A program made the position numbers and the translations under genes. From Escherichia phage vB_EcoM_YN3: a stretch of 64,000 nucleotides of DNA. Below, piece after piece: positions 126 through 12,046 of the stretch (positions within the stretch are counted from its first letter, which is position 1; the number at the start of each line of letters is the position of its first letter). The DNA is taken from sequence record PV763136.1; one strand, 5' to 3'. A model generated the notes under the pieces. It was not told the origin of the DNA and ran no database searches. It saw only the letters and a list, made by a program, of their open reading frames with translations.

Positions 126-163
126 AATGAGAATACCTATCATTGTGAGAATAGTTATCATTA
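126..163. promoter_or_regulatory. Two adjacent Fur-box-like motifs (GAGAATnnnTATCATT)
   Basis: aatgagaatacctatcatt and gtgagaatagttatcatta; 12-13 of 19 matches to GATAATGATAATCATTATC; same motif family recurs at 11892 and 12028. Confidence 0.3.
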
Positions 164-486
164 CGGGCAATTTAACATAATACCCATTATGCGCACCACT
201 GGCGATACATACAGGGATTGATAACATGAGTTACTGTTTACACACATAACAATTATATTTCTTACTATTTGTGTGGGATATAGTTAGCAGCCAATAGATT
301 AGATATTGACCTGTAGACTTCCAACCGTCTAGACGTCTAAGCGCCCACACAACAAGGCTTATACATACACTCCTGAATGTAAACAGGGCCGCAAAAATGC
401 TACCATACCAGATTGTAAATTTTTATGCAGCACTTGACAAAGAGGAGAAAAACTTGTCTGACACACTGGGCACAATATGCCATAAT

Positions 487-543
487 CTGACTGACATACT
501 GTGACATAACTGACACGATTGACATAATTGACATGCCTGACCG
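487..543. repeat. Tandem array of about 7 TGACAY units at 9-10 bp period
   Basis: Read directly: tgac(488), tgacat(492), tgacat(502), tgacac(511), tgacat(520), tgacat(529), tgaccg(538); inside ORF-free region. Confidence 0.7.
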
Positions 544-676
544 TTTACGCTCTCACTATTCACGCTATTACTATTCACTCGCTTTACTGTTTACATTCCT
601 GATAGTTTACATGTCTAATAGTTTACATAGATAACTGTTCACATACTTATCATTTACATGATTGACTGTTTACACA
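543..676. repeat. Iteron-like array of about 9 GTTTACAT/TATTCAC units at 15-16 bp period; DnaA-box-like
   Basis: Units begin near 543, 558, 573, 590, 606, 621, 637, 652, 668; GTTTACACA matches DnaA box TTWTNCACA at 8 of 9 positions. Confidence 0.65.
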
Positions 677-767
677 GATATGATAAGCCATGACATTCGT
701 TTGCATGAAAACAATTAGCAAGTTAACAATTAACAAGATAATAATATATGACATAATATAAAAGCAG

Positions 768-941
768 GGCAACTATTAGAAGATCTATAGTTGCCTTGCT
801 TGTCATGTCATGATTAACTAAATACAAGGCAACTATGATCTGATTAATAGTTTGCAGACAAACTATCACGGGGGTGATGGTTACTGCTTTTATATTATGT
901 CGCGACTCCGTCGCGCCATGCCATTCGTTTGCATAGTTGCC
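768..941. repeat. GGCAACTAT / ATAGTTGCC inverted-repeat family plus 20-bp direct repeat GCCATGNCATTCGTTTGCAT
   Basis: Arms at 768-776 and 787-795 (10-nt spacer), further copies at 828-836 and 933-941; direct repeat at 688-706 and 915-934; palindrome CGCGACtccGTCGCG at 901-915. Confidence 0.6.
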
Positions 942-1596
942 TTATTGTTACAGATAAAATAATTGTATTGTTAATTATTTCTTATCTTTCTATTAGTCAT
1001 CTAATGATTCCAGTTAGTATAGTAACGTACAGTAAACATTAGACGACTAAAGATTTCTCTGTTTATGATAACCTATCGTGACAATTTCAGACTGTTTACG
1101 AAAAATGTTGACACCTGAGCTGATTTATGTTATGCAGTTTACACGAATAATTATTTTATGCAGGTATTGACTATTCCGTTATTCTATGGTTGGAATAAAT
1201 GCTTAGCAGGCTATAGAATGGCGAGCGTACGTAAATTCTGAGATCTGGCGGCTATAGTTACACCCGATTTTTCACGTAGGACACGCTTTTGTGGTTATGT
1301 AAGTGTATGACTTATAAAGATTTTTAGTTGTTGACAAGCTATTGAAGATATGCATAAGGTTAAATTTTGTGCAAATGCTGCATTACGTGCAATTTTGGAA
1401 GGAAAAACGTGTAAAAATGGCCCTGCTACCACACAATGAAAAATTATGCAATAGTTATTTTATATGTATGTTTGTACAGTGTGTGGGATTGATGGCTAGT
1501 CAATTATTCCACTTGCCAGGCTGGGCCGTTTGTGGTAGGGGGGAAGAGCAGACAAAAAGAAAGGGGCCTAAGCCCCTTGATAATTCAGTTAAAAAA

Positions 1597-2016
1597 TTAT
1601 AATGATTCGTATATTTCAAAAATCCGATTTGCCAGGTCATTACGGTAGCGGAATTTTTCCTCACGTTTGATCATCAGATCTTTAAAGCCATATTCTTTAA
1701 GCACTTCATTAACTTTATGGCGGCATACCTTCATATTATCTTGAGCGTCACCAATAAACTTGTTGCTGTGGTGCATTGCTTTAATTTCTTCTTCCAGGAC
1801 CAGGGCAACTATGCGGACCGGATCAAGCTGATAGGCGGTAACATCCATGCGGCATTGTAGACGGCTTTTAACGTCTGCCACCGGATATACTGCAACCTCT
1901 TCCCCGTCAACATTGACAATAATTAGTTTACCATCGATTTCGAATCCTTTCGCCGCCGGACCGTGACAAAAAGCGTTATCAAAGCTATATGCCGGATTAT
2001 TAGATTTAATGTTCAT
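1597..2016 (-). CDS. Hypothetical early protein (139 aa)
   Basis: ORF with AGAGG RBS before ATG; TTGACA-17-TATATT promoter upstream at 2066-2094. Confidence 0.5.
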   Translation of the reverse strand: MNIKSNNPAYSFDNAFCHGPAAKGFEIDGKLIIVNVDGEEVAVYPVADVKSRLQCRMDVTAYQLDPVRIVALVLEEEIKAMHHSNKFIGDAQDNMKVCRHKVNEVLKEYGFKDLMIKREEKFRYRNDLANRIFEIYESL

Positions 2017-2065
2017 GGTGTTTTTACCTCTTAGTTAATTTTCTTACAACTTCCCTTCAAAAAAG

Positions 2066-2094
2066 AATATAGCAAAACTGCCGATCCCTGTCAA
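2066..2094 (-). promoter_or_regulatory. Sigma70-like early promoter (TTGACA-N17-TATATT)
   Basis: Minus-strand hexamers read directly, positioned upstream of the CDS starting at 2016. Confidence 0.5.
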
Positions 2095-2160
2095 CCAGGG
2101 ATAGCATAATTTTTATGTGATCAAGGGGCTTTATTGCCCCCCTGACCGTAACTTGTTGTA

Positions 2161-2424
2161 TTATTTGTTGCTCATCCAGCTTTCCCAAGCTGCCTGATAA
2201 TCTGCCTCACTGCGGCGGATCTCTTCTTGCTCTTCAAGCCGGATCTCTTCTTCCAGGTACCCCAAGATGTCAGCCTTTTTGGTCTGGCGTAACATCCAAT
2301 CATCTTTTTTACGGGTAAAGATCTTATATGCTTTCTCGCAAACCTCTTTTTTGCTACCTTTTTGGACTTCAAGAACTTTGTAGGCCATGTACTGAACTAG
2401 TTTGAGCTGATCAAGACGTTTCAT
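2161..2424 (-). CDS. Hypothetical early protein, charged (start set at internal Met, MKRLDQ)
   Basis: AAAGAGG RBS precedes internal ATG; longer track ORF 2161..2508 overlaps the next gene and a hairpin. Confidence 0.4.
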   Translation of the reverse strand: MKRLDQLKLVQYMAYKVLEVQKGSKKEVCEKAYKIFTRKKDDWMLRQTKKADILGYLEEEIRLEEQEEIRRSEADYQAAWESWMSNK

Positions 2425-2485
2425 GATGTTTACCTCTTTATGGGGTTCTGGTTTGGTGGGCCTTTTGGCCCGTGTCATTATCTTA

Positions 2486-10624: not shown

Positions 10625-10663
10625 GATCTTTTTTCCTTTGTGTTGGCGGGAAACATTCCCGCC

Positions 10664-10691
10664 TTTTGTGCCCAGTTTACTTGAATTTTGC
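10664..10691 (-). promoter_or_regulatory. Sigma70-like early promoter (TTGACA-N16-TAAACT) followed by a 5-prime GC hairpin
   Basis: Hairpin GGCGGGAATGTTTCCCGCC at 10636-10654. Confidence 0.5.
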
Positions 10692-10708
10692 AGCGTGTCA
10701 ACAATTTT

Positions 10709-11107
10709 TTATTCGTGGGCGCATGTTACAATGTGCTTTTTATAGCCCAGGTGGTCAGCAAGTGCCGACAAAAACTCTTCTTCGTAGATCCAGCCGTCGG
10801 CAGTGATCCCCATAGCATTTAATGCGCTCTCAAGTGCTGCGTTAGCTTTATCATAACCGTGACCGCTCGCCTTGCCGCCAGTATAGCCGTACTTATTGTT
10901 CTTGTTGTCGTGTATCCAAAAAACGCAGTAATGAGTGTTCCCGCTGGCGGCGGCATAATACCGGATCTCAGCTACTTCGTGCAAATTATTGTCATCGTCC
11001 AGGCCCACCAGATTATAAGCCTTGTAAAATCCACGATCACGGCGGCAGTTCTTGACATCAGAAAAAGAAAAGTCCGCATTATCAAAATTAAAGGTAGTGG
11101 TTTTCAT
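10709..11107 (-). CDS. Hypothetical protein (132 aa)
   Basis: ORF in early block. Confidence 0.5.
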   Translation of the reverse strand: MKTTTFNFDNADFSFSDVKNCRRDRGFYKAYNLVGLDDDNNLHEVAEIRYYAAASGNTHYCVFWIHDNKNNKYGYTGGKASGHGYDKANAALESALNAMGITADGWIYEEEFLSALADHLGYKKHIVTCAHE

Positions 11108-11171
11108 GATTTTATCCTCTTAGTGTCTTTTGTGATTTTAGTGTATTTGGTGTCGGACTATATGTCAATAC

Positions 11172-11369
11172 TTATTTTTTATTAAACCAGTGGTTGATCT
11201 GGCCTTTTGTCAGGGCGCAACGGTTAAGCTGTTGCCGGGTATAGCTCTGACCGCGACGGAATTTATAAAGGCCTTGCCCGTTGTTGATGGTTACATCCAC
11301 CCGGCAAACCATTTGATCGGTGACCACCTGGCGAGTGCTGCGACGTACTTTGATTCCGTAGGCGTTCAT
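11172..11369 (-). CDS. Small basic protein (65 aa)
   Basis: ORF; basic composition. Confidence 0.4.
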   Translation of the reverse strand: MNAYGIKVRRSTRQVVTDQMVCRVDVTINNGQGLYKFRRGQSYTRQQLNRCALTKGQINHWFNKK

Positions 11370-11447
11370 GATTTTTTATCCTCTCTGTTAATTAGTGTGG
11401 TGTTGTTCACCTTGCGAGGATAAGAATAACAAGAACTGTACGAGCTG

Positions 11448-11630
11448 TCAACCATCAGTTAAAATTATTTTTGGGTAGAATTCTCCAGCCGCCGCCCCTG
11501 ACAGGTTAACCATCATTTTTTCGTACTCTTCTTTATGTTCCAACGCTCCCGCCATAGCCTTTTCAACCAGGGTGATAGCCTCAGCGTCATTAATAGCTAC
11601 ATTTTCCAGGGGGATCCTATTACCTTTCAT
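11448..11630 (-). CDS. Hypothetical protein (60 aa)
   Basis: ORF at edge of the repeat island. Confidence 0.35.
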   Translation of the reverse strand: MKGNRIPLENVAINDAEAITLVEKAMAGALEHKEEYEKMMVNLSGAAAGEFYPKIILTDG

Positions 11631-11840
11631 TTTTTGTACCTCCTCTTCAATTGTTACCTATCCTATAGCATAGGCCCACCAGGTTTGCAAGCCTTCATTC
11701 TCCCCTACCTGGTCAGTTAGGTCCTGCCAGGCTGGCCCCGCCAGGTTGCAGCGGTTAGCGCATCAGGTTAGAAAAAATTTTTTGAAAAGTGTTGACAGCG
11801 GCCCCGCCAGGTGGCACAATATACATATCGAAAGGACGGC

Positions 11841-11910
11841 AGGCACCGGTGACGGGGGAGACAACCACCGGGGATGGGCGCTGCATGAAATGAGAACGAT
11901 TATCATTATC
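11841..11910. repeat. Composite repeat unit A: GC-rich structured element plus Fur-box-like palindrome
   Basis: GC element 11841-11876 (CCGGTG...CACCGG stem around GGGGGAGACAAC); GAGAACGATTATCATTATC at 11892-11910 matches Fur-box consensus at 16 of 19. Confidence 0.55.
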
Positions 11911-11972
11911 GTCTAAAAATTTATGCAAAAACTTCTTGCTTTCTTTGTCCTGTGTGATACTATAATAACAAG

Positions 11973-12046
11973 CCGGGGCAGTGGGGGCCGGGAGACAATC
12001 ACCGGGGGTGCCCGTTATTCTGCAAATGAGAATGATTATCATTCAA
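11973..12046. repeat. Composite repeat unit B: second copy of GC-rich element plus Fur-box-like palindrome
   Basis: Core GGGAGACAATCACCGG at about 11990-12005; GAGAATGATTATCATTCAA at 12028-12046 containing palindrome GAATGATtATCATTC. Confidence 0.55.

Follow-up and report, generated by a model that had tools for sequence, protein, structure and literature searches.

Fur-box-like sites in two non-coding islands

[quoted passage not shown] Several related records start or end exactly at window position 1 or 459, which places window position 1 at the physical left end. The first 459 bp form the direct terminal repeat (DTR). Two non-coding islands, 1-1596 and 11631-12304, are relevant to this analysis, and the second lies at 12.0 kb of a genome of ~137 kb (8.8%). 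The annotation of rV5 and JES2013 places an ORF over this second island (window 11755-12042, minus strand). This ORF is unannotated in most other records, and the ORF that PVP-SE1 has across the same conserved DNA uses a different frame. The features of both islands are listed below; the repeat and the boxes are given without a strand.

1..459: direct terminal repeat (DTR), annotated as repeat_region 1-459 in Gotham (MT682716), where the stretch is present twice
10..28: F0, Fur-box-like, AATGGGAATACTTCTCATT; differs from the palindrome AATGAGAATnATTCTCATT at 2 positions; 9 bp from the genome end
126..144: F1, Fur box, AATGAGAATACCTATCATT; 15/18 to the single-dimer consensus
144..162: F2, Fur box, TGTGAGAATAGTTATCATT; 14/18; abuts F1 with an 18-bp period
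11792..11820, plus strand: P_B1, predicted sigma-70 promoter, TTGACA-17-CACAAT with a TG extension (10/12 plus TG); start at ~11827
11889..11913: F3, Fur box, AATGAGAACGATTATCATT; includes a second site at 11895-11913 that overlaps it with a 6-bp offset, and contains the 16/19 classical box
11936..11966, plus strand: P_B2, predicted sigma-70 promoter, TTGCTT-16-TGaTACTAT, or a spacing of 19 to TATAAT; start at ~11971
11970..12024, plus strand: G+C-rich leader with the conserved blocks GAGACAAnCACCG and TGCCCGyTATTCTGCA
12025..12043: F4, the best Fur box, AATGAGAATGATTATCATT; 17/18, i.e., one position of 18 off the single-dimer consensus
12054..12072: F5, weaker Fur-box-like site, AATGAGAACTTTTCGCATT; 29 bp after F4

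The 16-mer GAGAAYNNNTATCATT occurs four times on the plus strand (129-144, 147-162, 11892-11907, and 12028-12043), as an earlier note on this DNA had described, against 0.19 expected in 64 kb. None of 100 shuffled sequences reached four copies, and no further match was found in the 64 kb with one mismatch allowed. The note had given the two DTR sites as 126-144 and 145-163, in a register unlike that of the other two. In the natural register, the 19-mer AATGAGAATnnTTATCATT lies at 126-144, 144-162, 11889-11907, and 12025-12043, and the sites read properly as AATGAGAATnATTATCATT. The four strong copies are confirmed, but the set was incomplete, as two weaker members (10-28 and 12054-12072) had been overlooked. 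All six sites fall inside the two islands, three within the 459-bp DTR (10-162) and three in a conserved non-coding control region at ~11.9-12.07 kb. There are no sites with three or fewer mismatches in the remaining 75 kb of the rV5 genome, so the proposed confinement to two gene-free islands holds.

We scored the sites against two consensus forms, the classical 19-mer GATAATGATAATCATTATC and the single-dimer form AATGATAATnATTATCATT. Recomputation reproduced the 16/19 classical match at 11892-11910 but gave 14/19 at 12028-12046, where 15/19 had been claimed. Four sites in the window have at most three mismatches to the single-dimer form, compared with 0.08 in first-order Markov random sequences. 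The single-dimer scores are 17/18, 16/18, 15/18, and 14/18 for the strong copies and 14/18 and 13/18 for the two weaker ones. Self-complementarity is highest in F4 (8/9), followed by F3, F0, and F5 (7/9 each), F1 (6/9), and F2 (5/9). Furthermore, overlapping sites offset by 6 bp are present at 11895 (F3) and 12031 (F4), which is the pattern described for clusters of Fur sites (PMC2189734). F3 and F4 combine a match to the Fur consensus with the dyad symmetry and 6-bp offset of strong Fur operators. F0 is unchanged in seven Vequintavirus genomes, and the F4 core is invariant across genera. In phage navn, F2 is annotated merely as a "repeat_region."

Evidence for host Fur as the probable binding protein

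The identity of these motifs as Fur boxes is strongly supported by their near-consensus sequence in the correct register and by three comparisons with bacterial DNA. First, the perfect palindrome AATGAGAATGATTCTCATT is found directly upstream of fur (in two phyla), feoAB, and TonB-dependent receptor genes in many bacteria. It also precedes genes assigned through Pfam to a periplasmic binding protein (Peripla_BP_2), iron ABC transporter components, and FTR1, so the same sequence stands before bacterial iron-homeostasis genes. This bacterial scan covered the C-variant palindrome only; the A-variant of the window was counted in the search of viral contigs described below. Second, when 26 kb of the E. 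coli ent-fep cluster were scanned with the palindrome, six of the seven best positions fell in three Fur-regulated intergenic regions that make up 2.8% of the stretch. Third, the left half-site AATGAGAAT is identical in the palindrome and in the iucA (aerobactin) operator. Neither the window nor any Vequintavirus record yielded a Fur homologue. The motifs are very likely high-affinity sites that host Fur would bind.

The 19-mer is not restricted to this group of phages. It is present in at least 120 unrelated viral contigs, a count that includes the window's own A-variant, while two matched control palindromes gave 0. The carrier phages differ greatly in size and G+C content. Although long open frames cover 72% of the bases, 108 of the 128 viral sites lie outside such frames, and the sites are clustered 11-fold. 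Another group of phages has a box that starts 10-11 nt past the -10 element of a TTGACA/TAAAAT promoter, a classical operator position. Our literature search found no earlier description of Fur boxes in the core non-coding DNA of lytic phages.

Position of the boxes and possible roles of bound Fur

The second island has a conserved arrangement of promoters, leader, and boxes. P_B1 is unchanged in six Vequintavirus genomes, and the -35 and -10 of P_B2 are kept, with a variable spacer, in Phapecoctavirus, Certrevirus, Seunavirus, and related contigs. The promoter-leader-box unit (11936-12072) is conserved in non-coding DNA of Vequintavirinae, Phapecoctavirus, and a Shewanella phage. It is the sole part of the island that is conserved (82-89%) in Certrevirus, Seunavirus, Klebsiella/Serratia/Erwinia phages, Phapecoctavirus, and Shewanella phage 1/4. 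In related phages, the unit is followed by arrays of two to four boxes with a period of 29-31 bp, and the promoter-to-box distance is held at 58-68 nt across genera. F3 starts at +62 relative to P_B1 and spans -82 to -58 relative to P_B2, whose own box F4 starts at +55. The two strong boxes of this island therefore occupy +55 to +80 downstream of the two conserved promoters and overlap neither the -35/-10 elements nor the start sites predicted for P_B1 and P_B2. Fur sites downstream of promoters have been reported as weak repressors (PMC2189734). There is no convincing promoter beside the DTR boxes F0-F2, and we could not recognize a product of the rightward transcripts, in which neither an ORF nor an Rfam family nor a conserved fold was found. 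A weak promoter-like site on the minus strand (12076-12048) overlaps F4 and F5.

Our preferred reading, to which we give a probability of roughly 0.45, is that these are host Fur sites through which iron represses or roadblocks the two conserved rightward promoters. In an iron-replete cell, Fe2+-Fur dimers would sit on both arrays. The strong island boxes follow the start sites of P_B1 and P_B2, both conserved rightward sigma-70 promoters, at 55-62 nt, and F3 additionally abuts the upstream A-tract of P_B2, positions from which bound Fur would be expected to act as a repressor or roadblock. Transcription across the island, in either direction, would then follow the iron status of the host. Rightward transcription would enter a block of conserved 65-nt GATCGAG repeats and oppose the leftward early genes. 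Under iron scarcity, Fur would leave the DNA and transcription would rise. Since the phage encodes no Fur of its own, it would be reading the sensor of its host.

Several observations count against this reading: the boxes lie off the -35/-10 elements, at downstream positions reported to give weak repression, the rightward transcripts lack a recognizable product, the DTR boxes lack a convincing promoter, and phage T5 has a comparable array. In addition, the core, with ~20 invariant positions, varies less than host Fur sites generally do, which hints at an additional constraint. Because the boxes avoid the promoter elements and three of them lie within 162 bp of the genome end, bound Fur may have other roles. 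Likewise, the equivalent array of T5 is in untranslated repeats without an annotated promoter, which points to a function different from promoter control.

One such role, which we consider unlikely, is that the boxes soak up host Fur as phage DNA replicates, so that their position relative to phage promoters is irrelevant. At least six near-consensus sites on hundreds of genomes would de-repress the Fur regulon and supply iron to the iron-dependent ribonucleotide reductases of the phage; rV5 encodes both NrdA/B and NrdD/G. Consistent with this, the phage sites are nearer consensus than the E. coli operators (one or two mismatches versus three or four in ent-fep), the arrays lie in non-coding DNA, and promoter geometry is not fixed across phages. 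However, six sites per genome are modest beside the thousands of Fur molecules in a cell, and the tight promoter-leader-box layout and the 58-68 nt distances kept across genera would be superfluous for titration. That Fur boxes in multicopy can titrate Fur in vivo is known from the FURTA assay (cited in PMC2189734). In other lytic infections, Fur-regulated iron genes have been reported to be induced, for no evident reason, even in iron-replete medium (PMC6024767), which would fit titration. Yet PAK_P4, a phage reported to induce host iron genes, has no Fur box throughout its 93 kb, so the induction does not require boxes.

By analogy with T5, Fur bound at the DTR and at the 12-kb island might instead act on the DNA itself, a role that we likewise regard as unlikely. 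Bound Fur could halt or delay the entering DNA, shield the terminal repeats or bring them together, or insulate the block of small early genes in the leftmost ~9% of the genome. Three boxes do lie 10-162 bp from the physical end, within the DTR, and the second island at 8.8% of the genome would suit such a boundary. In T5, a box array at 9473-9630 (best site AATGAGAATCATTATCATT) fills the "direct repeat C / palindromes E-I" of the left terminal repeat, at the calculated shear point of first-step transfer (9618) and beside the 7.9% nick. The T5-like phages DT57C and DT571/2 share this array. Furthermore, 30 of 120 viral loci have a box within 350 nt of the end of the stored locus, taken as the contig end, against 13.6 expected; this excess may, however, be an assembly artifact of repeats. 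Paired DnaA boxes flank the repeats in T5-like arrays but are missing here: 8.6 matches to TTWTNCACA would be expected in the 64 kb, but there is a single one, and it lies outside both islands. We found no evidence for two-step injection or for a first-entering end in rV5-like phages, and an architectural role leaves the conserved promoter upstream of the boxes unexplained. A broader form of this idea, which we hold to be quite improbable, is that Fur-box arrays are a general, unrecognized host-factor module of virulent phages that marks terminal repeats and delimits the pre-early segment, the first to enter the cell. Fur would then act physically, the T5 stop signal would in part be a Fur array, and the boxes at 10-162 and at ~12 kb would be the same device.

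The earlier note had also raised the option of a phage regulator with a similar site. That the boxes are operators of a phage-encoded DNA-binding protein, with an incidental resemblance to Fur sites, now seems very unlikely. Most early genes of these phages have no assigned function, and the core is invariant at ~20 positions across distant phages, which is tighter than is typical for sites of a host factor. Against such a protein stand the lack of any Fur-family gene noted above and the identical 19-mer in unrelated phages and in bacterial iron-gene promoters. The operators of a phage repressor should be restricted to related phages and co-occur with a conserved gene, but no conserved gene adjoins the box unit, and the small ORFs nearby are non-homologous between genera and absent from the window.

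Finally, it is highly improbable that the palindromes act as RNA hairpins in the rightward transcripts (as a terminator, stabilizer, or part of a small RNA). The perfect palindrome of PVP-SE1 could form a 7-8 bp hairpin, and the boxes lie within the predicted transcribed leaders of conserved promoters. However, one G.A mismatch is shared by all four strong window copies and is never compensated, and the two DTR copies among them are self-complementary at just 5-6 of 9 positions. The hairpin is not followed by a U-tract, and the motif is present in bacterial promoters as well. RNAalifold gave -5.0 kcal/mol with a covariation term of 0.07, fold z-scores were unremarkable (-2.0 to +0.55), and Rfam returned no match at the gathering score and chance-level matches alone at E values up to 5.

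Relation to known systems and significance

Like the chromosomal and plasmid operators of E. coli (iucA P1, fepA-fes, fepD-entS, and fepB-entC), the phage sites have the same recognition sequence, inverted repeats, and overlaps offset by 6 bp. They differ in being nearer consensus, in having no associated iron gene, and in forming separate boxes with 18- or 29-bp periods. The E. coli sites cover the -35/-10 elements, whereas the phage boxes lie downstream of promoters or beside the genome end. Among temperate phages, Fur boxes have been described before the cargo genes sitABCD in lambdoid coliphages (PMC6969025) and stx1 (PMC5552940). There, a phage genome likewise contains a host Fur site and thereby becomes part of the host iron regulon. 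In those cases, however, the box controls a moron or toxin promoter of a prophage, while here a strictly virulent phage carries the boxes in core non-coding regions with conservation across the subfamily. Phage GIL01 similarly has operators for a stress-sensing host repressor within its own control region (PMC4551915). Its LexA boxes differ in responding to DNA damage and in belonging to a defined lysogenic promoter of a temperate phage. Repeat Region 3 of T5, the injection stop signal, resembles the present case in having the same box array in untranslated DNA of a terminal repeat, at ~8% of the genome. In T5, the array is accompanied by paired DnaA boxes, a specific nick, and two-step DNA injection (preprint 10.1101/866236), features that are not known from this phage. 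In the parts of the T5 literature available, the injection-stop repeats were not named as Fur boxes.

Fur boxes are textbook elements, and the phage cases found in the literature concern temperate cargo genes (stx1 and sitABCD). Here the boxes belong to the basic non-coding layout of genomes from a strictly lytic group used for biocontrol and therapy, with conservation across the subfamily and beyond. The presence of the motif in the injection-stop repeats of T5 bears on first-step transfer, a question open since the 1960s. Since T5 and many other unrelated phages have the sequence as well, and since the exact 19-mer is widespread in viral metagenomes, recruitment of the host iron sensor by lytic phages may be common and overlooked. 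If Fur binds these sites, infection would be coupled to the iron status of the host. Iron levels in laboratory broth are very unlike those in the gut or infected tissue, so phage efficacy could differ between these settings too.

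Fur-box-like sites in the non-coding islands

The four motif copies described in the earlier note are present, with GAGAAYNNNTATCATT at 129-144, 147-162, 11892-11907, and 12028-12043. No further match occurs in the window even with one mismatch allowed (0.19 expected). Repeat finding and a mismatch scan brought in 10-28 and 12054-12072 as weaker copies, so that the original observation is both confirmed and extended. The six sites, designated F0 to F5, are listed below with the features around them.

Boxes, islands, and predicted promoters
1-1596: island A, gene-free and non-coding
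10-28: F0, in the terminal repeat
126-144: F1, in the terminal repeat
144-162: F2, in the terminal repeat
1.6-11.6 kb and beyond 12.3 kb, minus strand: small leftward early ORFs (gene annotation)
11631-12304: island B, gene-free and non-coding
11792-11820, plus strand: P_B1, rightward sigma-70 promoter predicted from sequence, TTGACA-17-CACAAT with TG
11889-11913: F3
11936-11966, plus strand: P_B2, rightward sigma-70 promoter predicted from sequence
12025-12043: F4
12054-12072: F5

The reported confinement of the boxes to the islands holds genome-wide, as the other 75 kb of the rV5 genome has no site at three or fewer mismatches. Another Fur-like site in the window, CATGGTAATAATTATCTTT, lies at 3282-3300, in the narrow space separating two early ORFs that are read leftward, and has 3 mismatches to the single-dimer consensus.

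Against the classical Fur box, 11892-11910 matches at 16 of 19 positions, as stated previously; for 12028-12046 the count is 14 of 19, and the 15 given before was wrong. With the second unit aligned with relatives, the invariant core is AATGAGAATGATT[A/C]TCATT, and its C variant is a perfect 9-1-9 palindrome. The 7-1-7 Fur-family box from work on Bacillus Fur, PerR, and Zur is TGATAATnATTATCA; the core contains TGAGAATnATTCTCA, differing from it at one position per half-site. Chen et al. represent one Fur dimer by a 19-bp “-9 to +9” model and describe the classical Fur box as the interior of two dimer sites offset by 6 bp (PMC2189734). The six window sites score 17, 16, 15, 14, 14, and 13 out of 18 in this single-dimer register. 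Both F3 and F4 have a second site at the 6-bp offset, and the earlier classical-box alignment is exactly such an overlap.

We judged identity by consensus-mismatch scans and a reciprocal test on the ent-fep genes, in place of a published Fur weight matrix. Probing the E. coli K-12 ent-fep cluster (26 kb) with the phage palindrome at up to 5 mismatches gave 7 positions. The fepA-fes, fepD-entS, and fepB-entC intergenic regions, together 2.8% of those 26 kb, hold 6 of the 7. The natural ent-fep operators have 3-4 mismatches to consensus, whereas the best phage sites have 1-2. An exact-match scan of bacteria with the palindrome, using one genome per species, returned at least 120 loci. Among the matches listed, the gene starting beside the palindrome is typically an iron gene; Pfam assignments there include fur (in Gallionella and a Bacteroidales genome), feoA-feoB, TonB-dependent receptors, FTR1 permease, a haem/siderophore-type periplasmic binding protein, and an ABC transporter ATPase with a solute-binding protein. 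On 804 plasmids, the sequence that we take to be the aerobactin promoter is found without change 20 nt before iucA; within it lies AATGAGAATCATTATT, whose left half-site is that of the phage boxes. The Fur-box identity of the window sites is well supported by these three independent comparisons, and the phage element is, in sequence, an ordinary Fur box.

Genome end and the conserved promoter-leader-box unit

The rV5-like coliphages (Vequintavirus) are 91-94% identical to the first 12.6 kb of the window over 94-97% of its length. Window position 1 or 459 is the exact start or end of several GenBank records, and Gotham has 1-459 annotated as a repeat present at both genome ends. This makes position 1 the physical left end of the genome and identifies 1-459 as its direct terminal repeat (DTR). 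We rejected “repeat_region” annotations as general marks of the termini; those of navn and anhysbys cover tandem boxes only, and the Gotham 1-459 annotation alone denotes the DTR. The rV5 paper calls the stretch after the terminal repeat a “non-coding” box and describes sigma-70-type promoters throughout the genome; Fur sites are not reported in it. Just inside the DTR boundary, 460-700 is densely packed with short direct repeats, of the TGACATAA type at 502-537 and of the (T/G)TTTACA type at 583-680. In 750-950 lie inverted repeats, one pair of which is perfect over 18 nt (750-767/884-901), plus 762-776/787-801. These repeats may serve in packaging or as part of an origin. Over both islands, about 20 “Campylobacter phage” records (MG0656xx, with C. 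jejuni given as host) share 92-97% identity with this rV5-like coliphage, a level that points to mislabelled or contaminant records.

Because identity within the genus is 90-97% throughout the region, conservation there cannot set the boxes apart from their flanks. Outside the genus, a sensitive DNA search found island B conserved only at ~11988-12075 (82-89% identity), and the matching DNA nearly always lacks annotation. Such matches come from Certrevirus, Seunavirus, Phapecoctavirus, and Shewanella phage 1/4, and from phages of Klebsiella, Serratia, Erwinia, and Pectobacterium.

Parts of the conserved unit
Part 1: sigma-70 promoter, -35 and -10 kept, spacer varies
Part 2: G+C-rich leader of ~55 nt with blocks GAGACAAnCACCG and TGCCCGyTATTCTGCA
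Part 3: 2-4 boxes with a period of 29-31 bp

Leader sequence (window 11990-12024 and 11856-11888) keeps the two blocks across genera, in the stored loci L003-L007, L029, L066, and L072. Salmonella phage vB_Sen_SG_WM_RUS_R7 is filed under Demerecviridae, yet it is identical to PVP-SE1 across the aligned ~180-nt region. Despite the cross-genus block conservation, the leader between promoter and boxes has no conserved RNA fold, and an RNA element was rejected: Rfam gave nothing at gathering score on either island (chance-level matches only, at E up to 5), RNAalifold found no conserved structure in ten homologous promoter-leader-box units, single-sequence folding energies are ordinary, and all four strong window copies have the same uncompensated G.A mismatch.

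In the window, F3 begins ~62 nt past the predicted P_B1 start and ends against an A-tract upstream of P_B2, while F4 and F5 begin 55 and 84 nt downstream of the predicted P_B2 start. Downstream of the boxes, 12148-12351 holds three 65-nt direct repeats with GATCGAGTAC (a Dam site), followed by leftward genes. In PVP-SE1, EC152, and contigs L066 and L072, the boxes are likewise followed by GATCGAG repeats, and the 65-nt repeats look like iterons of a conserved control/origin region. As to an origin signature, the GC skew has no informative turn at island B, and neither island contains a DnaA box. Upstream of and overlapping P_B1, 11673-11816 holds four GGCCCCGCCAGGT(T/G)GCA-like 17-mers, and PVP-SE1 has related CCAGG/GGCC-rich motifs at the equivalent place. 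Both rV5 (ORF198) and JES2013 annotate a minus-strand ORF at 11755-12042 with its starting ATG inside F4. It has no visible ribosome-binding site, is open in relatives with varying length, and differs in frame from the ORF that covers this conserved DNA in PVP-SE1; we consider it unlikely to be a gene.

Spread of the box and its likely reader

Beyond this lineage, at least 120 IMG/VR contigs contain the exact 19-mer, in unrelated flanks and in DNA of very different base composition; two control palindromes of matched composition had zero matches there. Among the matches listed, open frames of 100 codons or more occupy 72% of bases but hold only 20 of 128 distinct sites, and other Fur-like sites show an 11-fold enrichment at distances up to 200 nt from the 19-mer. 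In these IMG/VR loci (L009-L128), again among the matches listed, 30 of 120 have the 19-mer no more than 350 nt from a stored-locus end (13.6 expected), and in seven it begins 10-11 nt past the -10 of a TTGACA/TAAAAT promoter. DnaA boxes flank the 19-mer in contigs L060 and L127.

The earlier suggestion of a phage regulator with a similar site is disfavoured. Searching with two bacterial Fur proteins by tblastn gave no match in the window and 31 matches in 50,697 phage records, none of them in Vequintavirus or a coliphage of the same group. A conserved neighbouring regulator was also rejected, as the lone plus-strand small ORFs beside the unit (PVP-SE1/EC152, anhysbys, Shewanella 1/4) show no relationship from one group to another and do not occur in the window. 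Because the motif is common to unrelated phages and bacterial iron promoters, we infer that the protein reading the boxes is most simply Fur, which the hosts of these phages have in common.

Proposed iron-dependent control and its alternatives

Iron-dependent control of transcription is the reading we prefer, at a probability of roughly 45%. Fe2+-Fur on the box arrays would repress or block rightward transcription from P_B1 and P_B2, and would block leftward read-through as well. Island B activity would thereby depend on iron; origin activation or antisense control as the outcome are guesses. The earlier note had proposed Fur boxes with iron-responsive control. Of this, Fur-box identity is well supported, on sequence register and iron-gene promoters, but control is weakened by the boxes lying away from the classical operator position. 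Furthermore, the predicted P_B1 and P_B2 transcripts have no known product, and no convincing promoter was found at the terminal-repeat boxes.

Two alternatives likewise presuppose Fur binding. It is unlikely that the boxes instead serve as a sink that titrates host Fur. The super-consensus site quality and the arrays would suit such a sink, multicopy boxes do titrate Fur (PMC2189734), and iron-gene induction has been reported, unexplained, in lytic infection in iron-replete medium (PMC6024767). However, the 93 kb of PAK_P4, a phage reported to induce iron genes of its host, contain no Fur box.

Slightly less probable still is an architectural role of bound Fur at a genome end or boundary. F0 is only 9 bp from the DNA end, and an array of the same boxes occupies the T5 left terminal repeat (AY587007, 9473-9630), where “direct repeat C copies 1-4 / palindromes E-I” are Fur-box-like sites, the best being AATGAGAATCATTATCATT at 9577-9595 with 1 mismatch. 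The T5 array lies in the injection-stop region, next to the 7.9% nick and at the shear point calculated for first-step transfer (9618). The same array is also found in DT57C and DT571/2 (stored loci L064, from DT571/2, and L067). In contrast to T5, whose region has DnaA boxes, the present phage is depleted of them, which argues against a shared architecture: TTWTNCACA has 1 match in the whole window against an expected 8.6, and no shuffle was without a match.

Davison, writing on the T5 injection-stop region, stresses DnaA boxes, and Fur is unmentioned (10.1101/866236). In the open-access literature searched, the phage Fur boxes on record all belong to cargo genes of temperate phages, and we found no account in open-access full text of such boxes in non-coding DNA of virulent phages, in Vequintavirinae, or in T5. 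The architecture of the box arrays and their breadth across phages appear to be new, as does the placement of the boxes in the terminal repeat and conserved control island of a lytic phage.
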